Of a stretch of DNA of 56,874 nt, positions 3,109 through 33,308 are shown piece after piece. The position numbers and the translations under genes were made by a program. The notes under the pieces are model-generated. The model saw nothing but the letters and a program-made list of their open reading frames with translations. It was not told where the DNA came from and did no database searches. This DNA comes from Planctomycetia bacterium (GTDB taxonomy: Bacteria > Planctomycetota > Planctomycetia > Pirellulales > S012-138): contig JACOUI010000377.1 of NCBI GenBank assembly GCA_016177915.1, positions 1 to 56,874 of the forward strand, given 5' to 3'. Every line of letters begins with the position of its first letter. Position 1 is the stretch's first letter.

Positions 3109-3183
3109 GGATTGGCTGGCTCACGGTGCTTGCCGGACGAAGCGCGGGGGGTATCATGGCCGCTGGCGCCTTCCTTGCTTCCA

Positions 3184-3346
3184 ACACCAACCCGAAGCGC
3201 AAGCGAGGGAGTACCGCCGTCAACGCCGAGACGGAGAGGGCGCTTGGCCCTCGAACATCTCAGGGCGCGCGTGTCGGAACCCTCACTCGGTCTCTCTCTC
3301 GCTTGCGCTTCGGGTTAGTGTCCCTCGCTGGCGCATCGGGTTGGTG
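3184..3346. repeat. Same 30-nt family: one inverted unit (3184-3210) and two direct units (3296-3321, 3322-3346)
   Basis: ACACCAACCCGAAGCGCAAGCGAGGGA is the reverse complement of the unit. The direct units abut the fumC start. Confidence 0.85.
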
Positions 3347-3352
3347 AAACGC

Positions 3353-4843
3353 ATGGCACGGCGAACCAAGGCGCGATCGAAGGTTTCATCCGACGGGCGG
3401 CCCGCCCCAGCGCCGGCCGGCGAGTTTCGCATCGAGAAGGACTCGATGGGCGACGTCCGCGTGCCGGCCCGCGCCTATTACGGCGCTCAGACGCAGCGGG
3501 CCGTCGAGAACTTCCCCATCTCCGGCCGCACGCTGCCGGTGGGGCTCATTCGAGCGCTGGGCCTGGTGAAGTACGCCGCCGCCGTCGTCAACCGCGACCT
3601 GGGCAAGCTCGCAGCGACCGGAAAGAACAAGCTCGGCGCGGCGCAGGTGAAGGCCCTCCTCGCCGCCGCCCGCGAAGTCGCCGACGGCAAGTTCGACGAC
3701 CAGTTCCCCATCGACGTCTATCAGACCGGCTCGGGCACCTCGAGCAACATGAACGCCAACGAGGTGATCGCCAACCGGGCGATCGAGATCCTGGGCGGCG
3801 ACCGGTTCGCCAAGGAAAAGCCGGTGCACCCCAACGACCACGTGAACATGGGGCAGAGCACGAACGACATGTTCCCCACGGCGATCCACGTGGCCGTGGG
3901 CGTGGCCATCAAGGAGCGCCTGATCCCCGCGCTGAAGAGGCTGCACAAGTCGCTGGCGGAGAAGGCCAAGGCCTGGGACAAGATCATCAAGATCGGCCGC
4001 ACGCACCTGGCCGACGCCACGCCGCTGCGCCTCGGTCAGGAGATCGGCGGGCTGGCGCGCCAGATCGAGCTATCCGTCGAGCGGGCCGTGAAGGCGATTC
4101 ACGCCGTGCTCGAACTGCCCTGCGGCGGGACGGCCGTCGGCTCGGGCATTAACACCCACCCGAGCTTCGGCCGCCGCGTGGCCGAGGTGCTGGCCAAGGA
4201 GACGGGCGTCCCGCTGGTCGAGGCGGCCGACCATTTCGAGGCCAACGCCCAGCGCGACGGACTCGTCGAGTGCCACGGCCAATTGCGGGCGATCGCCGTC
4301 ACGCTCTTCAACGTGGCCAACAACATCCGCGTGCTCTCTTCCGGGCCGCGATGTGCGCTCTACGAAATCAAGCTCCCCGACCGGCAGCCGGGCAGCTCGA
4401 TCATGCCGGGCAAGGTCAACCCCGTGATGTGCGAGAGCCTGATGCAAGTCGGGGCGCGGGTGATGGGGAACGACCAGACGGTGGCGATCAGCGGGGCGGC
4501 CGGCGGGCAGTTCCAGCTCAACATCATGATGCCGGTCATGGCGCACGCGGCGCTGGAGAGCGTCGAGCTATTGGCCAGCGGGGCCGCGGCGTTCGTCGAT
4601 TTCTGCGTGGCGGAGATGGAGGCCAACCCGGAGGCCTGCGAGGCGTTCGTCGAAAAGAGCCTGTCGCTCGTGACCGCGCTCAATCCGCTGATCGGTTACG
4701 AAAAGGCCGCGGCGCTGGCCAAGGAGGCCTTCAAGACCGGCAAGACGATCCGGCAGCTCTGCGAAGAGCAGAGGCTGCTCGATTCGGAGACGCTGAAGAA
4801 GGCGCTCGATCCGTGGCGGATGACGGAGCCGGAGAAGGAGTAG
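3353..4843 (+). CDS. fumC: Class II fumarate hydratase
   Basis: Fumarate lyase signature GSSIMPGKVNP; N-terminal EKDSMGDVRVPARAYYGAQTQRA. ATG 3353 is preferred over TTG 3341 because 3322-3346 is still a repeat unit. Confidence 0.93.
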   Translation: MARRTKARSKVSSDGRPAPAPAGEFRIEKDSMGDVRVPARAYYGAQTQRAVENFPISGRTLPVGLIRALGLVKYAAAVVNRDLGKLAATGKNKLGAAQVKALLAAAREVADGKFDDQFPIDVYQTGSGTSSNMNANEVIANRAIEILGGDRFAKEKPVHPNDHVNMGQSTNDMFPTAIHVAVGVAIKERLIPALKRLHKSLAEKAKAWDKIIKIGRTHLADATPLRLGQEIGGLARQIELSVERAVKAIHAVLELPCGGTAVGSGINTHPSFGRRVAEVLAKETGVPLVEAADHFEANAQRDGLVECHGQLRAIAVTLFNVANNIRVLSSGPRCALYEIKLPDRQPGSSIMPGKVNPVMCESLMQVGARVMGNDQTVAISGAAGGQFQLNIMMPVMAHAALESVELLASGAAAFVDFCVAEMEANPEACEAFVEKSLSLVTALNPLIGYEKAAALAKEAFKTGKTIRQLCEEQRLLDSETLKKALDPWRMTEPEKE

Positions 4844-9161: not shown

Positions 9162-9549
9162 GCCGCTTGCGCGCTCCAGAGCGCCACCCGCACGAGCCGC
9201 GTTCCGCTGGGAAAGAAAGGAAACTTCGCATTGACGGGCCGCGGGCCGCTCCGCGGAACGCAGGCGGAAGGTCCGGACGGGGAGAATATAACGCGGGGCG
9301 ATACGGTCGTCAATCAATCGCAGCCGAAAGTTGTTGCGGGCCAATCATTTGTGCTTAGCGCGGCGCCGGCAGCCGCCGCGGAAGGGGCGTCGTGACCGCG
9401 CGTCGGCGGCTGAATTTGGCTGTCGCGGAAACTCGGGCGTGGACGATCGGTTGAATAGTGGGACGGCGCGGCCGCGGCAAACGTTGCCGCTTGCGCGGCC
9501 ATCGGGCAGCCTGGCCGGCCGTCGTCCGGGCGCGAGGCGGCGACGCGAC

Positions 9550-9579
9550 TTGTAACTTGCGCGCCGGGAAAGATAGAAT
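9550..9579 (+). promoter_or_regulatory. Sigma-70-like promoter candidate (TTGTAA-18-TAGAAT) upstream of the FHA gene
   Basis: Read directly. Sits in the 578-nt divergent spacer between ispE and the FHA gene. Confidence 0.25.
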
Positions 9580-9654
9580 TGGAAAGGAAGGCGGCCCGTT
9601 CAGCTTGCGCGGCGGTCGCCGAATCTATGCGGCACGAGTGGCCCGCCGCAGCGA

Positions 9655-9684
9655 GGGATTCGAACTGACGGGAATCGAACTGAC
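9655..9684 (+). repeat. 15-nt tandem duplication GGGATTCGAACTGAC / GGGAATCGAACTGAC
   Basis: Read directly. Lies in the leader of the FHA gene. Confidence 0.85.
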
Positions 9685-9739
9685 ACGTGGCGAACCGCAG
9701 GGGGGCTTGCGGCGCCCAAGGCATTTCGCCGGAAGGCGT

Positions 9740-10420
9740 ATGGCTGCGATCGTTTTGCAAGTCTTGGACGGCACCGACCGCGGGCGGGTGTTCGAGCATC
9801 CCGCCACGCCCATCACCATCGGCCGCGAGGAAGGCAACACCTTCCAGCTCAACGACGAGCGCGTGAGCCGGTACCATCTCAAGATCCAGGAGGACCACGA
9901 AAAGGTCATCCTCACCGACCTGGAGAGCACGAACGGGACGAAGGTGAACGGGGAGGACATCCAGGTCCGCATCCTGCGCTTTGGCGACTTGATCGCGCTG
10001 GGGCGGTCGGTGCTGTTGTTTGGGTCGAAGGAGCAGATCGCGGGGCGGCTGGCCGGCCTGCGAAGCCTGCGGAGCGGGGCGTCGCGGACGATGTCGCCGG
10101 AAGCGGGAACCGGCAACCCCCAGCCCCCGGCGCTGGACTTCGACGTCAGCGCCATGGACGCCGACGCGCGGGCCGTGCTCAATACGATGGAGCCGCCGGC
10201 GCTGCCGGAGCGGCTCAGCCCCGGCCAGGCCGCGCAGCTAGCAGAGATCTTTGAATACTTCCAGATCCAGGTGCGCCAATTGCTGGGCACGGTCCACGTG
10301 GACGAGAAGAGCGAGCGCGTGACGCTCGATTACCAGCGCTGGCAGGCGCTATTGGACATGCAGTTGCGGCTGGCGGGCTACCTCAAGCAGATCGCCGAGC
10401 CGAACTCGCACGTTACGTAG
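9740..10420 (+). CDS. FHA domain-containing protein
   Basis: ATG 9740. ITIGREEGNTFQLNDERVSRYHLKIQEDHEKVILTDLESTNGTKVNGEDI is a canonical FHA core. C-terminal half not recognised. Confidence 0.85.
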   Translation: MAAIVLQVLDGTDRGRVFEHPATPITIGREEGNTFQLNDERVSRYHLKIQEDHEKVILTDLESTNGTKVNGEDIQVRILRFGDLIALGRSVLLFGSKEQIAGRLAGLRSLRSGASRTMSPEAGTGNPQPPALDFDVSAMDADARAVLNTMEPPALPERLSPGQAAQLAEIFEYFQIQVRQLLGTVHVDEKSERVTLDYQRWQALLDMQLRLAGYLKQIAEPNSHVT

Positions 10421-20389: not shown

Positions 20390-20938
20390 TCAGATTTTCG
20401 GAATCTCGCGGCGGATTTGCTCCAGCCGCTCGCGCGTGCCGTGGACGTCGCACCAGCGGTAGACGTAGTCCCAGTCGATCGCGTCGCCCTGGACGGCGAT
20501 GACGTCGCGCACGTCCTCCAAGTCCTTTTTCCGCGCCCAACGCAGCTTGGTGATGATCACGTCTTCGGGGGTCGGCAAGTAAACGTCTCGCCCCGCAACT
20601 TGAATGCGCCGGCGCCGGGCGAAGCGCTCTTGGTCGTGTGCGTCGCCGCCGAGTTTGAAGAGTTCAATCTTGAACGCAGTCTGGGCAACGCGAACGACTG
20701 CTCGCGTCGTGCCCGTGGCCGTCTCAAAGGTGAGCTGCGGGTCCAAGCGAAACTCAGGCCCGAGCCGCGCAACAAGCCACGACAGCGAACCTGATTCAAG
20801 GTCAATGAAGAAGTCGGCGTCCTCCGTCGCGCGGGGGATCCCGTAGTAATTGCTGGACAGAGAGCCGACGACGAGATAGGGCAGATTCTCGGCATTGAGC
20901 GCATCGACGACGGCCAGGGTGTACTCGTCCAGTTTCAA
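20390..20938 (-). CDS. Minimal nucleotidyltransferase-fold protein
   Basis: TTG start at 20938. VVGSLSSNYYGIPRATEDADFFI is a GS...DxD polymerase-beta-type NTase signature. 4-nt TTGA overlap with the upstream small ORF. Confidence 0.7.
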   Translation of the reverse strand: MKLDEYTLAVVDALNAENLPYLVVGSLSSNYYGIPRATEDADFFIDLESGSLSWLVARLGPEFRLDPQLTFETATGTTRAVVRVAQTAFKIELFKLGGDAHDQERFARRRRIQVAGRDVYLPTPEDVIITKLRWARKKDLEDVRDVIAVQGDAIDWDYVYRWCDVHGTRERLEQIRREIPKI

Positions 20939-21165
20939 TTCTGCGTCTCCATCCGCTCTCGGAGCGCAAGCCTCTCCGCCAGAATCCGACGCACGTCTTC
21001 TTCCGACGCACCGGGATTCTGGTTGCGAATTCCCTCAATCGTCATCCAACAGGCGAATTCGAAGAGCCGCGGACCGGCAAGAAATTTTTCCTCCGCAGGC
21101 GTGCTTCTGGCGCGCACGACCTTCTCGCGGTAAATGTCGTCCAGCAGCTCTTTCGTCGGCTCCAT
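20935..21165 (-). CDS. Small helical partner protein of the nucleotidyltransferase
   Basis: ATG 21165 (MEPTKELLDDIYREKVVRARSTPAEEKF...RILAERLALRERMETQN). Stop overlaps the NTase start. Confidence 0.55.
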   Translation of the reverse strand: MEPTKELLDDIYREKVVRARSTPAEEKFLAGPRLFEFACWMTIEGIRNQNPGASEEDVRRILAERLALRERMETQN

Positions 21166-21245
21166 CGCTAGCCCGTCCCGTGCATGTCCAGTGTCGTACG
21201 TCGGCCGCAACGAAAGCGTATTGTAACGCGTGCGATGCCGTCGCC

Positions 21246-22592
21246 CTAAGGTTTCCTCACCCGCGCCCCGTCCGTGAGCGAAGTCTCCGGCGCCAGGACG
21301 ACCTCGTCGCCCGCCTCGAGCCCCTTGGTGATCTCCACGCGCTCGTCGTTCATGAGTCCCACTTGCACCTTCTCCAGCTTCGCCCGGCCGCCGCGAACGG
21401 CGAACACCTGCCAGTCGTTGGCCGCCCCGCGAAAGAGCGCCCCGCGCGGAATGACCAGCGCCTTCTCTTTCTTCGCCGTAAAAATTTTGGCCCGCACGCG
21501 ATACCCCACGCCAATCTGCTGCTCATTCCGCAATCGCTCGATATCCTGGGCGTCGATTCCGATGATCACGCTCACCCGCTGCTGCTCCACGCCCAGCGAG
21601 CTGACCTTCGTGAACCCGGCGGGATAGATCTGCTTGACCGTTCCCGTGGCGCTCTGGGGCCCGATCGCCGGGCCATACAGCTCGACTTCGTTCCCCTCGC
21701 GGACGTTGACCACGTCCTGGCTCAGGATTTCCGCCTCGACCTCCAATTCCTCCAGCGCTCCGATCTCCAGGAGCACCGTCCCGGCCGACAGATACCGCTC
21801 GTCGCGCGCGTGCCGCTCCAGCACCACGCCGTCGACGGGGCTTCTCATCTCGCCGCGCTCAGCGTTGTTTTTGGCCTGCTCGAGCTGCGCCTCGGCCGCC
21901 GCCTTCTGCTGCCTGAGCACGGCTGTTTGCAGCGACTTTCGCGCGATGTACTGCCGCACCAGCGTGGGCAGGAGGTCCGTGGCCGTCTGGATCGACTTCA
22001 GCGCGCTATGGACCAGGTTGTCCTGCTGAAAATCGAACCCCCGCTCGATGTGCTGCAGCTTGGTATCGTCGTATTTCTCCTCGCTAATCAGCTCGTCTCG
22101 CCGGAGCTTCTCCGCCCGCGCCAGGCTGTACTCGGCAAAATCGAGCCGTTTTTTGCCGGCCTCGACGCGCGTGCTCGCGGCCTCGACCGTCTTGCCCATC
22201 GACTCGACGTAGCTCAGCGACTGCTCCAGCGACGTTTGCTCCAGGCTCAAGTCCAGGCTTTCCTCGATCGAGGCCTGCAGCTCATCGACCCGCGCCTGGG
22301 CGACCTTCAGATCCAAGTCGAGATCTTTCGGCACGATCTGCGCCACGACCGCGTCCTTCTCGACGCGCGACCCGACGTCAAGCGCGATCTCGGAGACGCG
22401 CCCGCTATAGGGCATCGTGACGAGGTGCGTCCGCGGCAGCCGCGTCTTGGCCTGCTCGTCGACGAACTCGCGAATCTCGCCCACCTCGGCGCGGTCCGAC
22501 TGCACGACAACTCCGTCCGTCAAAAACCAATACGCCCCCGCGACGGCGAGCAGCACGGCCAAGACAACGACAATCGTGAGGACGGTCTTCAT
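21246..22592 (-). CDS. HlyD-family membrane fusion / periplasmic adaptor protein
   Basis: N-terminal TM MKTVLTIVVVLAVLLAVAGAYWF, a long coiled-coil middle, and barrel-sandwich and beta-barrel-like ends (VTMPYSGRVSEI, MRSPVDGVVLER, KALVIPRGALF). Confidence 0.85.
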   Translation of the reverse strand: MKTVLTIVVVLAVLLAVAGAYWFLTDGVVVQSDRAEVGEIREFVDEQAKTRLPRTHLVTMPYSGRVSEIALDVGSRVEKDAVVAQIVPKDLDLDLKVAQARVDELQASIEESLDLSLEQTSLEQSLSYVESMGKTVEAASTRVEAGKKRLDFAEYSLARAEKLRRDELISEEKYDDTKLQHIERGFDFQQDNLVHSALKSIQTATDLLPTLVRQYIARKSLQTAVLRQQKAAAEAQLEQAKNNAERGEMRSPVDGVVLERHARDERYLSAGTVLLEIGALEELEVEAEILSQDVVNVREGNEVELYGPAIGPQSATGTVKQIYPAGFTKVSSLGVEQQRVSVIIGIDAQDIERLRNEQQIGVGYRVRAKIFTAKKEKALVIPRGALFRGAANDWQVFAVRGGRAKLEKVQVGLMNDERVEITKGLEAGDEVVLAPETSLTDGARVRKP

Positions 22593-22806: not shown

Positions 22807-22834
22807 TTGACCGCGTTCCGCGAATTGCTATACT
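22807..22834 (+). promoter_or_regulatory. Sigma-70-like promoter candidate (TTGACC-16-TATACT) for the 22.9-30.4 kb cluster
   Basis: 5/6 matches in both hexamers. 65 nt upstream of the first cluster gene. Confidence 0.4.
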
Positions 22835-22898: not shown

Positions 22899-23771
22899 TT
22901 GCCGACAACCCGTCGGCCGTTGACACGGTTCCGGTTGTGTCACGAGAGCGCGCTTTGTGCTGCGCCGGCTTCGTTCCTTCCGCTGGCGGCCGCGACCACG
23001 AACTATCTGTGCGCGACGCCGATTTCGCTGGCGGTCTTTCGCCTTTGCGAGCTACGGCGGCTTTCCGATGTGGAGCTGCGCGCGCCGATCGTCGACCTGG
23101 GCTGTGGGGCGGGACAGTTCGTGCGGCTGGCGATGGCGGGACGGGTGGAGATCGGCGTTGACATTTCGCCGCGCCAAGCCGCCGGCGCGCGTCGTAGCGG
23201 GCGGTACGAGCGCGTGGTCGAGGCCGACGCGGCGGAGTTGCCGCTGGCCGATGAGTCTGTGGGCACGGTGCTGGCGGTCTCTTCGCTTGAGCACATGCGG
23301 AGGCCGGAGAAGGTGCTCGCCGAAGCGGGGCGCGTGCTTCAGCCGGGCGGAGTTTTCGCGGCCACGATCGTGCTGCCGGAACTGCGGTCGCATTTGTACT
23401 ATTCGGAGTTGACGCGGCGAATGGGGATCGCGCCATTGGGAAGGCTCTACTGCCGGCTGCACGATTGGGCGTTTGCACACCGGACGCTCCTTCCACAAGG
23501 GCGCTGGGAGCAGTTGGCGGAAGACGCTGGGCTGGAAATCGTGACGAGCCGGCGCTTCTTCTCGCCGGCGATCACGCGATCGTTCGACTTTTGGCTGCCG
23601 CCGGCGGTGCCGTACCGGCTGCTGGCCGCCGCCGGAATGCCGCTGGTCGTGCCGCTGCCGTGGCGGCGACGAATCGTGGAAGGGATGCTCGCGCGCGAAG
23701 AGCGATCGCGCGGAAACGTTGAGGACGGCACACTGTTGTTCCTCCTGGCACGGAAACGGGGGACGCCATGA
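22899..23771 (+). CDS. Class I SAM-dependent methyltransferase (first gene of the cluster)
   Basis: IVDLGCGAGQF (motif I), LPLADESVGTVLAVSSLEHM, LQPGGVFAATIV. TTG start at 22899 (start uncertain). Stop overlaps the next ATG (ATGA). Confidence 0.8.
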   Translation: MPTTRRPLTRFRLCHESALCAAPASFLPLAAATTNYLCATPISLAVFRLCELRRLSDVELRAPIVDLGCGAGQFVRLAMAGRVEIGVDISPRQAAGARRSGRYERVVEADAAELPLADESVGTVLAVSSLEHMRRPEKVLAEAGRVLQPGGVFAATIVLPELRSHLYYSELTRRMGIAPLGRLYCRLHDWAFAHRTLLPQGRWEQLAEDAGLEIVTSRRFFSPAITRSFDFWLPPAVPYRLLAAAGMPLVVPLPWRRRIVEGMLAREERSRGNVEDGTLLFLLARKRGTP

Positions 23772-24694
23772 ACCGCCGCGGCTTCACGCTGGTCGAGTTG
23801 CTGACGGTGCTCTCGATCATCGGGATGCTGCTGTCGCTGCTGATTCCGGCGGTGCAGGCTGCACGCGAGGCGGGGCGGCAGGTGGTGTGCAAGAACAACC
23901 TTCACCAATTGGCGCTGGCCTGCGACCTGCACCACACGACGCTTTCCGTCTATCCGCCCGGCCAGTTCACGGGCCCGAATGGCAAGGGCCCGTATGGCAA
24001 CGGGCCGAATTCGACGGCCTGGAGCTTCCTTGCGCGGGTGCTGCCGTACCTGGAGCGCAAGGACATTTACGAGCACGGCGACATTCCCAATAAGACGCTG
24101 CTGGAGAGCGGCGTGATGCACCTGACGCTTGGGGTGCTGCACTGCCCCAGCAATGGCCCGGCCGTGGCGCTGACCGATCGCGGGAACCTGATGACGTTCC
24201 CGGTCGGGCCGACGAACTACAAGGGCGTGAGCGGCTCAAACTGGGGCATGGACACGTCGTTTGGCGCCGTCCCGATCCCCATGAACACGCAGTGGCCTAA
24301 TACCGGGGCCAACGGCTCGCAGGACGGCCTGGACGACGGCGACGGCATGTTCTTCCGCAGCGACGAGCGGGTCCGGCGGACGGCGGCGCACGTGCGGGAC
24401 GGCCTGTCCAACACGTTCATGCTCGGCGAGGACCTGCCGGAAGAAAACGTGTACTGCTCGTGGCCCTATTCCAACAATGCCTACGGCACCTGCGCAATCC
24501 CGCCGAACTTTTCGAGCGCCGGCGGCCCGGGCGATTACCAGAACCGGTTTGGCTTCCGCAGCAACCACCCGCACGGGCTGCACTTTGCTTTTGCGGGCGG
24601 GGCGGTGCGGCAGGTGAAGGCGTCGATCGACTTGAAGTTGTACCGAAGTTTGGCGACGATTGCCGGAAAAGAGGGGTTGAGCTTGCCCGATTAG
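23768..24694 (+). CDS. DUF1559-family protein with prepilin-type N-terminal methylation segment
   Basis: MNRRGFTLVELLTVLSIIGMLLSLLIPAVQAAREAGR. The C-terminal HPHGLHFAFAGGAV is a variant of the H-X9-DG tail (DG replaced by GG). Confidence 0.9.
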   Translation: MNRRGFTLVELLTVLSIIGMLLSLLIPAVQAAREAGRQVVCKNNLHQLALACDLHHTTLSVYPPGQFTGPNGKGPYGNGPNSTAWSFLARVLPYLERKDIYEHGDIPNKTLLESGVMHLTLGVLHCPSNGPAVALTDRGNLMTFPVGPTNYKGVSGSNWGMDTSFGAVPIPMNTQWPNTGANGSQDGLDDGDGMFFRSDERVRRTAAHVRDGLSNTFMLGEDLPEENVYCSWPYSNNAYGTCAIPPNFSSAGGPGDYQNRFGFRSNHPHGLHFAFAGGAVRQVKASIDLKLYRSLATIAGKEGLSLPD

Positions 24695-24725
24695 AGTTCG
24701 CGCTTTTGGCGCCGGAGGCGCCGCA

Positions 24726-25661
24726 ATGAATTTCCGGGTTGTGCGAACAGTGCTGGGTCTCGTGCTGATCGCGGCGGCCGCCGCGAAGGGGCACGCTTTG
24801 GCCACCGACCCGGCTTGGGCGGACAGTCTGTCAAGCAATCCGTGGGTTGCACCGGGCGTCATTGAAGCGGAGTTTGCGTTCGGGGTCTGGCTGCTTTCGA
24901 ACCGCGCTCCGCGGATTACATGGTGCCTCATGGCGGCGTGTTTTCTAGTGCTCGCTGCTGTCGCCCTGACGGAGGCGACACGGGGGGCGGCGTCCTGCCG
25001 GTGCTTTGGCAAGGTAACGATTAGCCCGTGGTGGACGTTTGCGTTCGACGCGGCGGCGCTGGTTGCAATTGGGCTGTTTCGGCCGAGTCCCCCCGCGAGG
25101 GATGGCGAAACGAGCTGGTCGATGTCTCCACGGTTTGGCGGCGTGCTCTTTGGGGCGTGGCTCTTGGCCGCGGTGTCCGGCGGAACGGCGATTGCGGCGC
25201 TGCGCCCCGCGCCCGTGCCTGTCGAATCGGCCCGGGCTGACGACGCTCGAGCGGTGGTGCTGCGGCCCGAGCAGTGGATTGGAAAGCGGCTGCCTTTGCT
25301 GGCCCATGTTCCCAATGCCGCGGTGTTAGGGCGAGCCGACTGGGTGGTGGTGCTACACCGGCACGACTGTCCGCATTGTCAGGCACTGTCCGCACGGATT
25401 AGAGAAGTCGTTTCCGGCGACGCGCGCCGGGGATGCTTCCGTCGCGTGGCGCGGATCGAATTGCCGCCGCACCCGGCGCCCTCGGAGAGCGAGGAGCCAG
25501 GGCCGTGGCTTTCGGTGAGGCTGAGCGCGCGAAGGACGTGGCTAGGAACCACGCCCGCCATTCTGCTGATCCGCGACGCGGTGGTCCTGCGCGTCGTGGA
25601 CGACGTGCCGTCGATCGGCGACTTCGCACTGACTCCTCCTGCTGGGGAGGCGCTGCCATGA
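24726..25661 (+). CDS. MauE/DoxX-like membrane protein fused to a thioredoxin-fold domain (CPHC)
   Basis: 4-5 predicted TM helices with the MauE-type SCRCFG loop. The C-terminal domain has VVVLHRHDCPHCQAL, a thioredoxin CxxC that matches the DsbA-type CPHC. Confidence 0.75.
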   Translation: MNFRVVRTVLGLVLIAAAAAKGHALATDPAWADSLSSNPWVAPGVIEAEFAFGVWLLSNRAPRITWCLMAACFLVLAAVALTEATRGAASCRCFGKVTISPWWTFAFDAAALVAIGLFRPSPPARDGETSWSMSPRFGGVLFGAWLLAAVSGGTAIAALRPAPVPVESARADDARAVVLRPEQWIGKRLPLLAHVPNAAVLGRADWVVVLHRHDCPHCQALSARIREVVSGDARRGCFRRVARIELPPHPAPSESEEPGPWLSVRLSARRTWLGTTPAILLIRDAVVLRVVDDVPSIGDFALTPPAGEALP

Positions 25662-26224
25662 GTCGCCGTACTTCAGCCATCGGCGCCGGGTTGCTTCTTG
25701 TCGGCGTCGCGGCGTTTGACCTGATCTTCGTGTTCGCGTTTCCGGCGGCGCATCCATCCAAGGAGCGCGACGAGCCCCCGTCTGCACCGATCTCCGGCGG
25801 GAAGACGGTGCCCGGGCGGACGCAGGACTGCGGGGCGAAGAGCCTGTACGTCATTTGCAAGGCGCGCGGCGTGGCCACGTCGATGGAGGAGCTGCGGCGG
25901 TTGACGAGAACGACCGAAGAGGGGACGTCGATGCTCGACCTGAAGCACGCGGCGGGTGCGCTGGGCTTCACGGCCGAGCCCTATGAATTGTCGTTCGAGT
26001 CGCTGCGCCGGCACCTGGCGATCCCGGGCAACTACGCGATCCTGCACGCAAACACCAAGCACTTCTTTCCCGCCGTGGGGAGCAGCGGAAACAAGGTTCG
26101 CGTGTTGGATGCGGCGATTGGCATCGAGGAAGTGGATGAACGCATGTTGCGTTCTTCCCGGTATCGCTGGGAGGGCAAAGCGCTCCTCCTGACTCCGGTC
26201 GAAGAGCAAGCGTCCTCGCATTGA
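25658..26224 (+). CDS. Membrane-anchored stand-alone peptidase C39-like cysteine protease
   Basis: ATGA overlap with the previous gene. N-terminal MSRRTS plus TM AIGAGLLLVGVAAFDLIFVFAF. C39 motifs are QDCGAKSLYVICKARGV (Gln/Cys), AILHANTKHFFPAVG (His) and VRVLDAAIG (Asp). No ABC transporter domain. Confidence 0.75.
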   Translation: MSRRTSAIGAGLLLVGVAAFDLIFVFAFPAAHPSKERDEPPSAPISGGKTVPGRTQDCGAKSLYVICKARGVATSMEELRRLTRTTEEGTSMLDLKHAAGALGFTAEPYELSFESLRRHLAIPGNYAILHANTKHFFPAVGSSGNKVRVLDAAIGIEEVDERMLRSSRYRWEGKALLLTPVEEQASSH

Positions 26225-26234
26225 GGCGGCAGCC

Positions 26235-27278
26235 ATGATCAGTCGTTACAAATTAGCGGTCCTGACAACGTGTGTCGCGCTCTGCGGCTGCGCGGGCAGT
26301 GCCGACGTCGCGACGCAAGGCGGGCCGCGTAACGAAGCCCCGCCCGTCCAATTGGAATTCGAGCCGAAGACAATCGACCTAGGCGATTTGCCGATGGGCG
26401 CAGAGCGCGCGTTTAGCGCCAAGGTCGTCAATCGCACGGGCGCGACCGTGACGGTCCGCGACATGCTTCCGAATTGCCGATGCGCCAAAGTGGAACTGCC
26501 CGAGCGCGCTATCGCCCCCGGCCAAAGCGTTAGCCTGAAGGGGTCTTTTGTCGCGGGCGACGCGGCAGGCCTGGTACGTACGTACGTGGTCCTCGATGTG
26601 GAGGGAGGCCAGTACCCGCTGGAACTTCGCGCGAACGTCATCCGGCAGGTTTCGTGGTCGCCCGCAGTCGTCGTTCTGGCCCCGGACGTGGTAGCGGACG
26701 CGGCGGGCGAAGGCGCGTTTACGGTTACGAACGGGTCATCCGAGGCTGTATCGCTTTCTGAAGCGTCCAGCGAGCGCGTGGGCGCGTCACTCGTTTTGCC
26801 GCCCGATCCAATTGCGCCGGGTGCCTCCGCCCCGATCAGGGTTCGTTGCGGCCCCGGCGCCGTCCAGCCGCGCGATTTGACGGTCAGGGTACTCACGTCG
26901 CATCGCTTTGAGCAGAGATTGGACCTGCCCGTCCAGGTTCGCCCAAAGAGTACCGTCGAAGTGAAACCAGCCGCCATTCATTTCGGAGTCATCTCCAAAG
27001 ACGATCTGCTGAACCGTGAGCACATCGAGGTCGTCATGGACGGAGACGTGTTGGATTCGTACAAGTTTGAAGGCGTCGACACGCCACCCTACCTAAGGCT
27101 TAGCGGCTTTACGTCCATTGCCGCGCAAAGTCGGCGGATCGTCGACCTTGTCGTGCTCGACTCGTTTCGCGGCATCGACTTGGGGAGCACGCTCGCGTTC
27201 CGGTTCTCGCGGCGCGCGGGCGGGGCCGATTTGGTGGTCGAGCTTCCGATAAGCGGGTTCCTTGCCACATCCGAATAG
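26235..27278 (+). CDS. DUF1573 (Ig-like/ASH-type) domain protein, signal/lipoprotein-like N-terminus
   Basis: IDLGDLPMGAERAFSAKVVNRTGATVTVRDMLPNCRCAKVEL fits the DUF1573 pattern (G.v..g......f.v.N.G...l.i..v...C.C). N-terminal LAVLTTCVALCGCAGS. Confidence 0.75.
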   Translation: MISRYKLAVLTTCVALCGCAGSADVATQGGPRNEAPPVQLEFEPKTIDLGDLPMGAERAFSAKVVNRTGATVTVRDMLPNCRCAKVELPERAIAPGQSVSLKGSFVAGDAAGLVRTYVVLDVEGGQYPLELRANVIRQVSWSPAVVVLAPDVVADAAGEGAFTVTNGSSEAVSLSEASSERVGASLVLPPDPIAPGASAPIRVRCGPGAVQPRDLTVRVLTSHRFEQRLDLPVQVRPKSTVEVKPAAIHFGVISKDDLLNREHIEVVMDGDVLDSYKFEGVDTPPYLRLSGFTSIAAQSRRIVDLVVLDSFRGIDLGSTLAFRFSRRAGGADLVVELPISGFLATSE

Positions 27279-27325
27279 TCAGATTCGGCAACTTCAACTG
27301 ACTCGAACCTAGAGAGGAGCTTTCC

Positions 27326-27808
27326 ATGCGGCGCGTTACGATGCTCGTGTTGTTGATTCTCGTGGCTTGCGTCCTTAGCGCGTCCGCACCGTCTGCTCTC
27401 CGCGAGACTCCTGGCAGGCCCTTGGCCGCCGCGGAGGCCGCCGCGCTTCGCGGATCGCAGACTGGCGCCCACTGGTGCAATCAGTTCCCCGCCTGCGACT
27501 TTCCGCCTACCGGTTCGTGCCCTGGAGGCACAGTCCTCTGTGAGGGCAAGCAGCCCAATCAAAAGTGCGCTTCCCCGCTCGACCTCATCTATTGGGACCG
27601 TCCAGAGGAGTGCAATCCCGAGTCGGGACATCAGTATTGCTCAGTGTACCAATATAGGCAGGTGCTCTGTCGGACATTCATGGACTGTCTCTGCGACTAC
27701 GTCGACGAGGAGCTGACGTGCAGCAAGCAAGCCCCGGCCAACACTACCTGTAAGAACATCCTGCTCGACCCGTGTACGTGCTCCTTTACGCCGTGTCCAG
27801 GCAGTTGA
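27326..27808 (+). CDS. Cys-rich secreted/lipoprotein-like small protein (160 aa, 16 Cys)
   Basis: AGGAG lies 6 nt upstream of ATG 27326. N-terminal MRRVTMLVLLILVAC is a lipobox-like LVAC. It is followed by PLAAAEAAALRGS and a 116-aa region with 15 Cys. No homologue recognised. Confidence 0.65.
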   Translation: MRRVTMLVLLILVACVLSASAPSALRETPGRPLAAAEAAALRGSQTGAHWCNQFPACDFPPTGSCPGGTVLCEGKQPNQKCASPLDLIYWDRPEECNPESGHQYCSVYQYRQVLCRTFMDCLCDYVDEELTCSKQAPANTTCKNILLDPCTCSFTPCPGS

Positions 27809-27909
27809 TCGCGCGCTGACAGTCCGCCTTGCAATCACTCGGAGACATCTGCACGTCAGTCAGCAGGCAGGCACGCCCGTCACCGGAGCCACATTCTCAT
27901 CTCTTACTC

Positions 27910-29025
27910 ATGGAGCGGCGACAGTTCATTATGCGCAACAGAGTTCTTCTGGTCACTGCGTGCATGTTGTTGGCCATGACGAGCCGCATCGCCACTGGCG
28001 ACGACGGCTTGGCCATGGCGGTCGAAGCATGGAAGGCGTCTTCAACAGCCGTGACCTCCGGCGAGGGTACTGGGACGTTCCTGTACGAAAAGCGCAACAC
28101 GCCAACCGGACCGTGGAAAACCATCACCGACGCGCGCGTGTCTGTCTTCTTCGACAAGGAGAAATACCACATTCGGATGGAGTGCTCTAAGGAATGGCTT
28201 GGAGCCCGACGACGCATCATCATTCACGACGGATCTGCGATCTTCAGCAGCCGGTTCGTGACGGGAGCTCAACCCGTTGATGGCCAGGGTGAAGTGTTCC
28301 TCAACCGGAACGTCGGGGGAATGGTACGGCCCGAAGCCGCAGGCGTGCCGTGGGACGTGAGTAGACTTCCCTACAGTCTCGGCAATCTTCCCTTGATGGT
28401 GAAGAAGGTCGGCGCGGAGAACATCGCGGTGACGCGAACAGCGGAGGGCGACTACATTCTATCGCACGCGGTAGTCAATAGCCCCAACGTACGGGTGGAG
28501 CGCCACTGCCTGCGTCAGTACGGGTACAACATCGGTATCAAACGGTTACTAACCGTGGGGCAGGACACGCCGACTCAGGAGTTCAACGCCACATGGAAGA
28601 AAGCGGGGCACGTCTGGTACATTGCATCCATTGAAGAGAATTCGACCGTAAAAGACACCGAGTCTGAAACCGTCTACCACCGGTGGAAGTTGAGCTACGA
28701 CAACTTCACTCCCAACGCCGCGGTTCCCGCGAGCCGTTTCAGCTTCGCCGCGCTGGAGCTTCCCGGGGGAGCGCGCATCCTCGATCACAGGCCCGCGACG
28801 GCGGCACCCATTCGGTACGTTCCGGTGAAGGATGCGGAGATGGAAGCGAAAATGGACAGCCTGGTCGAGCAGCTCAACAGCCTGCCTTCCACGCGGCCCA
28901 AGCGCGGGGAGGTCGAAGGCGCCGAAGGCAGCATCCGCTGGTGGGTGTTCGGGGCGGTCAATGCTCTTGTCGCCATTACGGTCATCGTCTTGCTCGTGCG
29001 CATGCGCCGTCGCAAGACCGCCTGA
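27910..29025 (+). CDS. Secreted protein with C-terminal TM anchor and Arg-rich tail (hypothetical)
   Basis: ATG 27910 or 27931. Signal-like MRNRVLLVTACMLLAMTSRIATG. C-terminus WWVFGAVNALVAITVIVLLVRMRRRKTA. The middle may be a LolA-like beta fold (weak impression only). Confidence 0.65.
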   Translation: MERRQFIMRNRVLLVTACMLLAMTSRIATGDDGLAMAVEAWKASSTAVTSGEGTGTFLYEKRNTPTGPWKTITDARVSVFFDKEKYHIRMECSKEWLGARRRIIIHDGSAIFSSRFVTGAQPVDGQGEVFLNRNVGGMVRPEAAGVPWDVSRLPYSLGNLPLMVKKVGAENIAVTRTAEGDYILSHAVVNSPNVRVERHCLRQYGYNIGIKRLLTVGQDTPTQEFNATWKKAGHVWYIASIEENSTVKDTESETVYHRWKLSYDNFTPNAAVPASRFSFAALELPGGARILDHRPATAAPIRYVPVKDAEMEAKMDSLVEQLNSLPSTRPKRGEVEGAEGSIRWWVFGAVNALVAITVIVLLVRMRRRKTA

Positions 29026-29080
29026 AGCGGACCCGCGGAAGTCCTTGGGCGGCGATCGCGCCCGGAACCCCCCACCCCAA

Positions 29081-29104
29081 CCCTCCCCCACAAGGGGGGG
29101 AGGG
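29081..29104 (+). terminator. Hairpin CCCTCCCCC-ACAAGG-GGGGGAGGG after gene 27910..29025
   Basis: 9-bp stem 55 nt after the stop. No U tract. It lies inside the cluster, so it is possibly an attenuator or processing site rather than a full terminator. Confidence 0.3.
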
Positions 29105-29129
29105 GGCAAGAGGAGCGGAAGATCAGCCG

Positions 29130-30374
29130 ATGAACGGCCGCGCACGCTCTACTTGGCAGTGGGTTGTTTGGGCCGCCGGTCACTACCTGACAAGCTGCGT
29201 GGTCTTTGTCGCCGTCTGGATCGGAGTCTTCGTCGCTCCGTCAGTGCGCGCCCCGCGGAGCTACCTGGGCGGCTTTGTCCAGATCGACGGGATATCGCAC
29301 GAGGAACTCGTCACGCGCGGCTACGCCGACGCCCCGAGAACTGCGGCGCGCTTTCCCGCGTACATTGTGCTGTCTTGGGCCGTCGAGCGGCTCACCGGCG
29401 CGAGCGCGGCCCTGGCACTCGTCCTGACGGCGAACGCCTGCTTTTTGGCGGCGCTGATCGTGTTGGCCAAGTACCTTGCCGAGCGCCGGAGAGTTGAAGG
29501 CGGCGTCGCTGGGCCTCCGCAGCGCGTCGACCTGACGCTCTTGGCGCTGGGCCTGTGGCCATTCTCGCTCTTTTTTCGAATGGCCTACACCGAGTCGCTG
29601 TTCCTGCTCTGTGCGATCGTGTCGATGTACGCCATCGAGCGCCGCTGGCCCGCGTGGGCGATCGCGCTCGTCGTCGGCCTGACGACTGCCACTCGGCCCG
29701 TTGGCGTCGCTCTCGTCGCGGTGTTTGCGATGCACCTCTGGCAGGAATCCCGCCGTAATGCGCTGAGATCACCGGCCCGATCGTTGCGCTCTTTCGTCCC
29801 GCGCGCGGCGCTTTGGCTGCCGCTCTCCTGCTGGGGACTCATCGCCTACATGGCCTATCTGCACCTCCAGTTTGGCGACGCCTTCGCCTTCGCCCACGCC
29901 CAGGACATGTGGGTGCGCCGCGCCACTTACTGGCCCGAAAAAATCGTGCCGCTCGTGGCGCTGGAGCCGCTGTGGTCCCCGTACGTCCACGGCGCCACGA
30001 CCTATTGGCGCAGTTACGACTCGGGCAATAACCCACTCTTGAGCTTCGGCTTCGTGAACCCCATCGTCTTCGTTCTCACCGTGGCGGCGGTCGTGACGGG
30101 CGCGATCAAGAAGTGGCTGAACGGCCGCGAGCTTTTGCTGTGCGGTCTGCTCCTGGGCATCCCGTACGTGACGATGGCCTACGACAACATCATGCTGGGC
30201 CAAGCGCGCTTCGCGTCGGTGGTTTTTCCCGCGTACATCGTCCTGGGGCGCTTGCTTCGGCGCCTGCCACCGTGGGCGATCGCCGTCTTTTTCGTCCTCT
30301 GCGCCCTGCTCCTTGGCTTTTACTCCGCCCTGTTTGCCGGGGGGTACGGTCAGACGTGCAGGGTGCTTTACTGA
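29130..30374 (+). CDS. Polytopic membrane protein, GT-C / PIG-V-like mannosyltransferase family
   Basis: ATG 29130 within ORF 28683..30374. Many TM helices. FFRMAYTESLFLLCAIVSMY and the overall layout resemble PIG-V/GT-C glycosyltransferases. Confidence 0.65.
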   Translation: MNGRARSTWQWVVWAAGHYLTSCVVFVAVWIGVFVAPSVRAPRSYLGGFVQIDGISHEELVTRGYADAPRTAARFPAYIVLSWAVERLTGASAALALVLTANACFLAALIVLAKYLAERRRVEGGVAGPPQRVDLTLLALGLWPFSLFFRMAYTESLFLLCAIVSMYAIERRWPAWAIALVVGLTTATRPVGVALVAVFAMHLWQESRRNALRSPARSLRSFVPRAALWLPLSCWGLIAYMAYLHLQFGDAFAFAHAQDMWVRRATYWPEKIVPLVALEPLWSPYVHGATTYWRSYDSGNNPLLSFGFVNPIVFVLTVAAVVTGAIKKWLNGRELLLCGLLLGIPYVTMAYDNIMLGQARFASVVFPAYIVLGRLLRRLPPWAIAVFFVLCALLLGFYSALFAGGYGQTCRVLY

Positions 30375-32182: not shown

Positions 32183-32503
32183 TTGAAGTTCACGACCTTG
32201 ATCCCGCTGACGCGCAACGACGGCTCGCGCGTGCGCCGCTCGGAATTGTCGGCGCTGGTCGAATCGCTGTGGCGGCCGTTTGGAGGCATGACCGAAGAGG
32301 GGCACGTGACCGGCCACTGGATCGCCCCGCCTGATGGTACGCATTTTCAGGATACGTGCCTGAAGGTGTCGATCGAAACCGACCGGGAACGCCTGCCAGA
32401 TGCGATCGCTGCCGTGAAGAGGATCGGCCGCGCGCTCGGTCAGCGGGCGATGTACTTCGAGGTCTCGGGCTACGACGGGGTTCAGTTCTTACGGATCGAG
32501 TAA
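32183..32503 (+). CDS. Hypothetical small protein (106 aa)
   Basis: TTG start preceded by AGGTGA. MKFTTLIPLTRNDGSRV...AMYFEVSGYDGVQFLRIE. Family not recognised. Confidence 0.5.
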   Translation: MKFTTLIPLTRNDGSRVRRSELSALVESLWRPFGGMTEEGHVTGHWIAPPDGTHFQDTCLKVSIETDRERLPDAIAAVKRIGRALGQRAMYFEVSGYDGVQFLRIE

Positions 32504-32549
32504 CCAAACAGCCACCGAATTGCGAGAGCTTTTTTCTGGGAGCGATGCC

Positions 32550-32981
32550 ATGCCGAAAATCGCCAAAAAGACGAGCACCAAGGGAGTCGAGTCCAAGGCC
32601 CGCGAGCTGCTGACCTTCGCGCGCAGCCGCGCGAAGGAAGCGCGCGACTGGATCGAGCTGCACAACGCTTTGTTCGGCATCGGCGGCAAGGCGACGGAGC
32701 TGTTTCCGACGGAAGCCGAGCGCACGGCATTTTCCCGAATGCCCGAGTGCAAACAGGTGCACGCCCTGATGGACACGCTTTCAGACCCGCCTGCCAAGGT
32801 CTTTGGGGACCTCCTGGCCACGGCGCACGGAGCGATCAGCATTCGTTTGCCGCGGTCGCTGCACGCGGCGCTTTTGGCGGAGGCGGAGGCGGAAGGCGTC
32901 AGCCTGAACCAGCTCTGCGTGTCGAAGCTTGCCGTGCAACTGCGGGCCTCCGTTCACGGACCCGCGACGCGTGCGGGGTAA
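32550..32981 (+). CDS. HicB-like / ribbon-helix-helix antitoxin-family protein
   Basis: C-terminal ISIRLPRSLHAALLAEAEAEGVSLNQLCVSKLA is the RHH tail typical of HicB-family antitoxins. The N-terminal half is not recognised. Confidence 0.55.
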   Translation: MPKIAKKTSTKGVESKARELLTFARSRAKEARDWIELHNALFGIGGKATELFPTEAERTAFSRMPECKQVHALMDTLSDPPAKVFGDLLATAHGAISIRLPRSLHAALLAEAEAEGVSLNQLCVSKLAVQLRASVHGPATRAG

Positions 32982-33000
32982 GCGAGTCGGATGTAGCATC

Positions 33001-33207
33001 ATGCAGTGGCAAAAGCTCCTCAAAGCGGCGCTCCTTTTGCCGGAGACCGAGCGGCTCATTCTGGCGACGCAATTGCTGGAGTCCATTCCTGCGGATGACG
33101 GGTGCTGGTCCGTCGAGGATCCCGGATTTCTCGAGGAGCTCGATCGGCGGTCGAGCGATGGCTCGACCGCGGTTCCGCTATCGGAGTTGTGGGACAACCG
33201 GCGCTGA
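33001..33207 (+). CDS. Putative addiction-module antitoxin component (Unstab_antitox-like)
   Basis: ATG 33001. MQWQKLLKAALLLPETERLILATQLLESI ... EELDRR matches the pattern of the putative addiction module component family. No toxin gene follows. Confidence 0.6.
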   Translation: MQWQKLLKAALLLPETERLILATQLLESIPADDGCWSVEDPGFLEELDRRSSDGSTAVPLSELWDNRR

Positions 33208-33228
33208 TTGAGGCACGGAATCCCGAAC

Positions 33229-33308
33229 GGCAGGCGGGACGCCTACCCCACGAACGGCAGGCGGGACGCCTACCCCACGAATGGCAGGCGGGCCGCCTAC
33301 CCTACGAC
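33229..33308 (+). repeat. Three tandem 26-27-nt REP-like units GGCAGGCGGGACGCCTACCCCACGAAC
   Basis: Units at 33229-33255, 33256-33282 and 33283-33308. About 100 nt upstream of the A2M start. Confidence 0.9.

Follow-up and report, generated by a model that had tools for sequence, protein, structure and literature searches.

We analysed a stretch of 56,874 nucleotides (nts) from a Planctomycetia bacterium (contig JACOUI010000377.1), hereafter called the window, which contains a gene for a cysteine-rich precursor protein (positions 27326–27808, + strand). A preliminary description of this open reading frame (ORF) had proposed that its lipobox or Sec-type N-terminus is followed by an internal double-glycine-type leader, cleaved by a periplasm-facing C39 peptidase encoded two genes upstream. 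We find that the ORF is a real gene, that its leader block is conserved among distant homologues and resembles that of the protein CtA, and that it stands in strict synteny with a gene for a C39 peptidase which has an intact catalytic triad and no ATP-binding cassette (ABC) transporter as partner. Judging from the sequence, we think it fairly probable that the precursor is exported by Sec, oxidised by a MauE-CPHC protein and a DUF1573 protein, and cut by the periplasmic C39 peptidase after G43-S44, which would release the domain Q45–S160.

The Cys-rich precursor and its leader block

The gene at 27326–27808 encodes 160 amino acids and is supported by homologues and by an AlphaFold2 model with a mean predicted local distance difference test (pLDDT) score of 88.4. 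A Shine-Dalgarno-like sequence, GAGAGGAG, can be read at 27312–27319 on the same strand, 6 nts 5′ of the ATG at 27326, and purine-rich tracts of the same kind lie 5′ of the equivalent ATG in the homologous loci. The precursor begins with the residues MRRVTMLVLLILVAC; residues L33–S44, LAAAEAAALRGS, are encoded by 27422–27457, and 15 cysteines are found within Q45–S160, all as the preliminary description had it. A search of the ORF against Pfam and NCBIfam matched no family, and the precursor is covered by no curated family.

A word-indexed search returned one relative (P0002, 42% identity), while HMMER, run exhaustively over 1.84 billion cluster representatives, gave 19 matches. Seventeen of these are proteins of 154–191 amino acids with the same layout as the query and one is a family member in truncated form; P0012 (1255 amino acids, nine matched stretches) was discarded as a repetitive fungal CBM1 protein with a spurious summed match. 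Two further members were taken from the loci themselves, namely L011 (partial) and L012 (an uncalled ORF). In the latter, contig ERZ25039550 (2.2 Mb), both the C39 gene (7842–8387) and the Cys-rich gene (9455–9976) had been missed by the gene caller, so that the family is probably under-counted in protein databases. The relatives are mostly metagenomic, one being in a Planctomycetota metagenome-assembled genome (MAG). A profile scan of genome contigs with the C39 alignment recovered only the MAG already in the set, and a scan of metagenome contigs gave no match.

All 17 full-length members of the family alignment (A2) and L012 share one layout: a basic N-terminus, a hydrophobic or uncharged stretch of 17–22 residues, a variable linker of about 6–20 residues and the leader block. 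The core that follows spans about 115 amino acids, with 10 invariant and 2 nearly invariant cysteines. Most mature regions contain 14 or 16 cysteines; the window protein has 15, C150 being the extra one. Alignment of the homologues, a check that the preliminary description had suggested, thus shows that the spacing of L, E, L and G-S is conserved as residue classes, together with 12 cysteines that are invariant or nearly so.

The family block consensus comprises 12 residues, L-[STA]-[DE]-x-[ED]-[LA]-x-x-L-R-G-[GS]. Among the 19 homologues, L at position −12 and G at −2 are invariant (19/19 each), and −7 is always L or A (L in 11). S, T or A occupies −11 in 16/19 and D or E occupies −10 in 17/19, followed by E or D at −8 and L at −4 (13/19 each), R at −3 (11/19), G (10/19) or S (5/19) at −1, and Q at +1 in 9/19. 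Directly 5′ of −12 the information content of the 19-sequence logo is below 1.5 bits, which marks a sharp block boundary. The classical double-glycine leader has the form LSxxELxxIxGG, and Dirix and co-workers reportedly carried out a screen for such leaders in 2004. The family follows the corresponding consensus, L(−12) S(−11) x x E(−8) L(−7) x x I/L/V(−4) x G(−2) G/A/S(−1), and the window leader itself has L, E, L, G and S at the canonical positions and A at −7. The predicted cleavage point would lie between 27457 and 27458.

On the window sequence alone, the loose motif L-x3-E-x3-[LIVM]-x-G-[GSA] is not significant, with 3 occurrences in the six-frame translation against a mean of 1.05 in codon shuffles; the leader is more than chance because it is conserved across 19 homologues whose pairwise identity is only 22–46%. 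A 28-position profile of the leader block was then compared with 177,635 distinct PDB sequences. The top three matches were all CtA (E = 0.0023, 0.033, and 0.044), the double-glycine leader substrate of PCAT1, and its stretch GRELTDEELMEMTGGST aligned with the family leader consensus. In the AlphaFold2 model, residues 35–43 form a short helix, as such leaders are expected to show. Leader and family hidden Markov models (HMMs) found exactly one member per cassette and nothing further in the window, where the next-best leader-HMM match (E = 0.12) lies on the wrong strand of another gene. By its conservation and its resemblance to CtA, the internal segment is a genuine double-glycine-type leader, as had been claimed.

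The leader is preceded by an export segment (residues 1–25, 27326–27400) made of an MRR n-region and a 22-residue uncharged stretch with a Kyte-Doolittle value of 2.71 and a predicted helix at residues 2–19. Such an export or anchor segment is found in 18 of the 18 full-length members inspected (17 in A2, plus L012), and the Sec-type N-terminus proposed before is thereby borne out. Double-glycine leaders as a class sit at the extreme N-terminus and lack a Sec signal; here, a hydrophobic segment comes first. Residues 1–25 are predicted to act as a Sec signal peptide or, alternatively, as a signal anchor. In many members, small residues follow the hydrophobic stretch, so that a cut by signal peptidase I is possible, and the precursor would be either a pre-pro-protein or a signal anchor released by C39.

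The C39 peptidase and the cassette

The gene for a stand-alone C39 cysteine peptidase of 188 amino acids, with one N-terminal transmembrane (TM) helix, indeed lies two genes upstream (25658–26224, + strand). It matches Pfam Peptidase_C39 (PF03412) with E = 4.6e-17 and 62.5 bits, against a gathering cut-off of 22; among solved structures, the peptidase domains of PCAT1 and ComA come closest to it. In the alignment with PCAT1 the catalytic residues, Cys (QDCG), His (KHFF), and Asp (VLDA), are matched, and four cassette homologues keep all three unchanged. The TM helix covers residues 12–28 and has two K/R residues before it. Fifteen C39 relatives measure 103–279 amino acids (most of them 181–204) and none has an ABC domain; a single N-terminal hydrophobic helix is present in 12 of the 12 relatives read (4 aligned and 8 more), with K/R on its N-terminal side in most. 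In the loci examined, the C39 gene is always near the Cys-rich gene and never fused or adjacent to an ABC transporter. Removal of the leader during export by a cognate ABC transporter, the second trait of the class, is thus not what these loci provide for. With one TM helix, positive charge on its N-terminal side and no ABC domain, the C39 domain is expected to face the periplasm, in agreement with the orientation first proposed, where the leader of a Sec-exported substrate would lie.

The order C39, DUF1573, Cys-rich gene, ~365-amino-acid protein is kept in the window and in L001, L003 (the Planctomycetota MAG GCA_019347905.1), L004, L009, L010, and L012, that is, in every contig long enough to hold it. 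Three short contigs show the same order as far as they reach: C39, DUF1573 and the Cys-rich gene in JGI 3300056388; DUF1573, the Cys-rich gene and the next gene in L007; and C39, DUF1573 and the start of the Cys-rich gene in L011. In the window, all genes from 22899 to 30374 are on the + strand, with ATGA overlaps at the junctions 23768 and 25658. We searched the literature on C39 with DUF1573 or MauE, on DUF1573 in Planctomycetes, and on FilB, and did not find the cassette described.

Two proteins of the cassette make up a putative redox module. The first (24726–25661, + strand; Pfam MauE, E = 2.9e-9) is a MauE-domain membrane protein with a C-terminal, thioredoxin-like CPHC domain and is a candidate disulfide-forming module; its stop overlaps the C39 start at 25658. 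The MauE gene is present in the window, L001, and L004. The motifs SC[RH]CFGK, DCP[HR]C, and TPA (cis-Pro-like) are invariant among the MauE proteins at 37% identity. Whether the CPHC domain is periplasmic is uncertain: manual hydropathy gives five hydrophobic segments with the N-terminus inside, which would place it there, while an automatic scan finds four ahead of this domain. The second is a DUF1573 lipoprotein with Ig-like domains and the CxC motif NCRC (26235–27278, + strand; Pfam DUF1573, E = 2.6e-13). Of 9 cassette homologues, 8 keep a lipobox-like xxGC together with P-x-C-G-C. DUF1573 selenoproteins have UGC at the CGC motif (PMC9312934), which marks this motif as redox-active. The cassette has its own putative disulfide machinery, a point in favour of the earlier interpretation, in which the disulfide knot itself is hypothetical. 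In the L010 locus (a Logan contig), the alignment of the DUF1573 gene (3182–4216) to its homologues is lost in mid-gene and near the end, which looks like a frameshift or assembly error.

The ~365-amino-acid protein is encoded always 3′ of the Cys-rich gene (27931–29025, + strand, with an uncertain start at 27910, 27931 or later); it is defined by synteny, alignment A4 and TM segments. It has an N-terminal signal, a C-terminal TM helix, and an RRRK tail, and it matches no Pfam family; its AlphaFold2 model is poor (pLDDT 49.6). A LolA-like reading was dropped, as it came from a single weak Pfam match (E = 0.042). At the C-terminus, LPST is followed by about 20 residues, the TM helix and RRRK, with a sub-threshold match to NCBIfam GG_III-CTERM (E = 0.0016), and LP[ST] before the helix is kept in all homologues of this protein. 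A C-terminal sorting signal is conceivable from this arrangement.

Further downstream lies the gene for a polytopic membrane protein of 414 amino acids (29130–30374, + strand) with about 8 hydrophobic segments, 85% identical in L001 and 40% in L004. We obtained no Pfam, NCBIfam or PDB match for it, and no similarity is detectable to the PMT_2 protein at the same position in L012. Glycosyltransferase genes of PMT_2 (GT-C) type or GT2 type occur instead of or beside the 414-amino-acid protein in L012 (11094–12521) and L003 (5366–7462 and 11789–12901). Their position gives a hint that the Cys-rich protein may undergo glycosylation in the envelope.

The co-directional run opens with a class I S-adenosylmethionine-dependent methyltransferase (22899–23771, + strand; Pfam Methyltransf_11, E = 3e-20) whose start codon is uncertain and whose stop overlaps the next gene's start at 23768; a methyltransferase is also present in the L003 cassette. 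That next gene encodes a DUF1559 protein with a prepilin-type N-methylation signal, similar to type II secretion pseudopilins (23768–24694, + strand; SBP_bac_10 (DUF1559), E = 6.7e-34; N_methyl, E = 1.8e-6), and is also found upstream in L001 and L003. On the 5′ side of the operon, a consensus scan indicates a sigma-70-like promoter candidate at 22807–22834 (+ strand; 10/12, with extended TG), a pattern match alone. No terminator or stable hairpin was found 3′ of the Cys-rich gene.

Divergently upstream of the run is a gene for an HlyD-family membrane-fusion protein of the resistance-nodulation-division or ABC type (21246–22592, − strand), which is not syntenic in the other loci. At 20390–21210 (− strand) we observe a candidate toxin-antitoxin pair, in which a DUF2204/DUF6036 nucleotidyltransferase (182 amino acids) is preceded by a 91-amino-acid, antitoxin-like protein related to Rv0078B (24.0 bits, under the Pfam cut-off of 27.1). 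On the other side, a 153-amino-acid ORF with a HicB-family antitoxin domain lies at 32520–32981 (+ strand), flanked by small overlapping ORFs at 32183–32503 and 32929–33207 for which no family match was found. A 27-bp tandem repeat (33224–33307; 3.1 copies, 94% matches) is located directly 5′ of where a bacterial alpha-2-macroglobulin gene probably starts; this gene extends to 39555 and encodes about 2050 amino acids with MG2, A2M, bait-region, TED, and MG10 domains.

The predicted mature core and its variation between loci

The predicted mature domain Q45–S160 is encoded by 27458–27805 (+ strand); it is hypervariable between loci. The AlphaFold2 model, built from 18 sequences, has pLDDT values above 90 in the core and is beta-rich, with two long hairpins. 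A Foldseek search with this confident model gave no match in the PDB (best E = 1.9) or in BFVD (best E = 1.2). The modelled core fold is thus without detectable relative and is a candidate new fold.

Comparison of the window with its closest homologue, L001, reveals a sharp local break in similarity. The MauE, C39, and 414-amino-acid proteins are 84–87% identical between the two loci, with a synonymous divergence (dS) of about 0.5, and the flanking DNA is about 85% identical. Nucleotide identity is 59–73% in the C-terminal two-thirds of DUF1573, 47–49% in the Cys-rich core (39% at the amino-acid level, dS 2.17, near saturation) and 63–68% in the centre of the 365-amino-acid gene, beyond which it returns to more than 80%. 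The signal and leader segments can still be aligned between the two proteins. The amino-acid identity of the core to L001 is the same as that to the distant L003 and L004. This is a pattern of allele replacement of the core between otherwise near-identical loci, with the DUF1573 and 365-amino-acid proteins partly co-diverging. Positive selection on the core in situ was considered and rejected, given a ratio of nonsynonymous to synonymous divergence (dN/dS) of about 0.3 and a dS of 2.17 in the core against about 0.5 in the flanks.

The co-divergence suggests that the DUF1573 and 365-amino-acid proteins contact the variable core and may bind it, for example as a chaperone and as an immunity protein or receptor. 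The product is probably a strain-variable effector, extracellular or of the envelope, and the pattern suggests a bacteriocin-like toxin with an immunity protein, a ligand, an adhesin or an exposed antigen. One refinement of the Sec and C39 pathway, which we regard as possible though somewhat unlikely, would make the product a polymorphic bacteriocin-like toxin, with the 365-amino-acid protein as its immunity protein and a type II secretion-like release. The replacement of the core, with its saturated dS, inside conserved flanks is consistent with this, as are the parallel divergence of the C-terminal part of DUF1573 and the centre of the 365-amino-acid protein and the leader/C39 logic, which is that of bacteriocins. 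Glycocin clusters likewise join a double-glycine leader, disulfide enzymes, and a glycosyltransferase, and the DUF1559 pseudopilin gene hints at a type II secretion-like route across the outer membrane. On the other hand, neither Pfam nor NCBIfam shows similarity to toxin or immunity families, the fold is without match, 365 amino acids is large for an immunity protein, and the same pattern would be expected of an adhesin and its receptor or of a surface protein exposed to phages.

The proposed pathway, its alternatives and known systems

The pathway that we propose would comprise three steps. First, the basic, hydrophobic N-terminus would direct the precursor to Sec; the precursor would then either stay anchored in the inner membrane or be cut by signal peptidase I to give a periplasmic pro-protein. 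Second, as the gene content suggests, the 14–16 cysteines of the core would be oxidised by the MauE-CPHC protein together with the CxC-containing DUF1573 lipoprotein. Third, the tethered periplasmic C39 would recognise the helical segment L-S-D-x-E-L-x-x-L-R-G-G/S and cut after G43-S44; motif, synteny, and topology point to this step, and its product would be a released domain of 116 amino acids starting at Q45. It seems to us about evenly balanced whether the whole constitutes an undescribed Sec-dependent pathway, with a leader behind a signal or anchor, a periplasmic C39 peptidase, dedicated oxidation, a new fold of about 7 disulfides and an allele-exchanged core.

Several points weigh against this account. 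The residue at −1 is R, T or N in 4 of the 19 homologues, which is unusual for C39 sites, and when 18 members were compared with NCBIfam at E ≤ 10, one matched TIGR04149 (E = 0.073) and none reached the cut-off, HMMER filters being prone to lose short motifs. No counterpart of the Gln expected about 6 residues ahead of the catalytic Cys could be aligned, the alignments beginning just before the Cys, and this is a caveat for peptidase activity; the window C39 has Q at −2 (GRTQDCG), a position taken by N, A or E in some relatives. L003 lacks MauE, and L012 has an insertion sequence (DDE_Tnp_1) directly upstream, at the position expected for MauE. The PDB matches of the CPHC domain are weak hints of a thioredoxin fold (E = 0.12–0.9). 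Topology is based on hydropathy and the positive-inside rule, and the sample is small and nearly all metagenomic. Topology, cleavage, disulfide formation, and the function of the product are all inferred.

An alternative that we consider unlikely is that the protein is an ordinary Sec pre-protein, in which the helix serves as a structural or chaperone-binding pro-segment that is kept or removed by another protease, while C39 acts elsewhere, on the pseudopilin, the DUF1573 protein or the 365-amino-acid protein. The variable −1 residue and the failure of the NCBIfam leader models to score the family are consistent with it. So is the precedent of FapD, the one C39 of the periplasm to have been characterised, which experiments show to be active: in this functional amyloid (Fap) system of Pseudomonas, no substrate or recognition site is known for FapD, and the Fap proteins lack canonical C39 leaders and sites (PMC5557850). 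Against this alternative, the block agrees with the canonical leader at each of the seven positions, and the PDB sequence that it matches best, CtA, is an established C39 substrate; neither in the window nor in any cassette does the leader HMM point to a second candidate, and the C39 gene and the Cys-rich gene occur together in every informative contig.

Much less support is found for a lipoprotein, in which signal peptidase II would cut before C15 and leave the product lipid-anchored, and we hold this to be very unlikely. The part of the preliminary description that concerns the motif stands, since LVAC does fit [LVI][ASTVI][GAS]C; the lipid anchor does not, because the alignment column of this Cys is not conserved. 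L001 reads VLVC there, its −1 residue being V, and most members have no Cys in such a context. Furthermore, the uncharged stretch runs 10 residues beyond C15, and the DUF1573 proteins of the same cassettes do keep an xxGC lipobox. Finally, a classical cytoplasmic precursor starting internally near L33 and exported by an ABC transporter encoded elsewhere, with the HlyD-type adaptor gene (21246–22592, 5 kb upstream on the opposite strand) as part of the exporter, is scarcely credible: L33 is indeed TTG in the window and L001, but codon −12 reads CTN in 9 of 11 loci and, in most loci, the interval from the hydrophobic stretch to the leader holds no start codon, which, with the Shine-Dalgarno-like tracts before the upstream ATG, means that the hydrophobic part, itself conserved as protein, is translated and that an internal start appears excluded in most loci; nor is there a syntenic ABC transporter or HlyD gene in L003, L004, L009, L010 or L012, C39 is not fused to a transporter, and 14–16 cysteines argue for folding outside the cytoplasm.

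If the proposed Sec and C39 pathway is correct, DUF1573 proteins (CxC/UGC) and MauE-CxxC fusions would gain a role as client-specific disulfide machinery, a new disulfide-rich fold would be added, and a hypervariable locus, which may be a new polymorphic effector system that includes a partner protein, would be placed in the Planctomycetota, where secreted effectors are, to our knowledge, almost unstudied. In this cassette, a protein with predicted Sec export and a canonical leader stands next to a membrane-tethered C39, a pair that lends itself well to testing.

Textbook accounts place double-glycine leaders and C39 peptidases in processing that is coupled to ABC transporters and occurs on their cytoplasmic face. 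The PCAT/AMS leaders (PCAT1-CtA, ComA-ComC, LagD, colicin V CvaB) share with our family the consensus at −12, −11, −8, −7, −4, −2, and −1, as well as a helical leader (predicted here) and a C39 partner, whose best PDB relative is the PCAT1 peptidase domain. In these systems, however, a cytoplasmic peptide has the leader at its N-terminus, the peptidase is ABC-coupled and the cargo is a short peptide, whereas in the cassette the leader lies behind a Sec-type segment, the C39 of about 185 amino acids is membrane-tethered without an ABC transporter, and the cargo has 116 amino acids with about 7 predicted disulfides. Because it has neither the N-terminal placement nor an ABC-fused peptidase, the cassette is not a member of the classical double-glycine leader/PCAT class.

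Glycocin and sublancin clusters combine a precursor with a double-glycine leader, thiol-disulfide oxidoreductases, a glycosyltransferase and a C39-ABC exporter; glycocins measure about 40 amino acids, are modified in the cytoplasm and leave the cell through SunT-type ABC transporters. The likeness lies in the leader, the disulfide enzymes, the C39 peptidase and the PMT_2/GT2 genes of L003 and L012. Unlike in glycocins, every component of the cassette is predicted to act in the envelope, and glycosylation is here a hint from gene content. The light subunit of methylamine dehydrogenase, MauA, contains six disulfides and has MauE and MauD as accessory proteins. In both cases, MauE and a CxxC thioredoxin-like module stand beside a small, periplasmic, disulfide-rich protein (predicted here), but the cassette has the two modules in one protein, its client bears no relation to MauA and no mau genes are present.

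FapD resembles the cassette C39 in being stand-alone, Sec-exported (here a prediction) and encoded in one operon with presumed Sec-exported substrates, while the MauE, DUF1573, and 365-amino-acid genes are unrelated to Fap. The authors of the FapD study wrote that peptidases of this C39 class "have yet to be characterised" (PMC5557850). Unlike the FapD system, the cassette has a candidate substrate with a canonical leader and, if our reading holds, would provide the first clearly recognisable, defined substrate class for periplasmic C39 peptidases and a handle on their specificity. In the explanation that we find best, the leader/C39 recognition module would have been re-used outside the cytoplasm, its logic moved by analogy from the cytoplasmic face of ABC transporters to the periplasm and coupled there to Sec.

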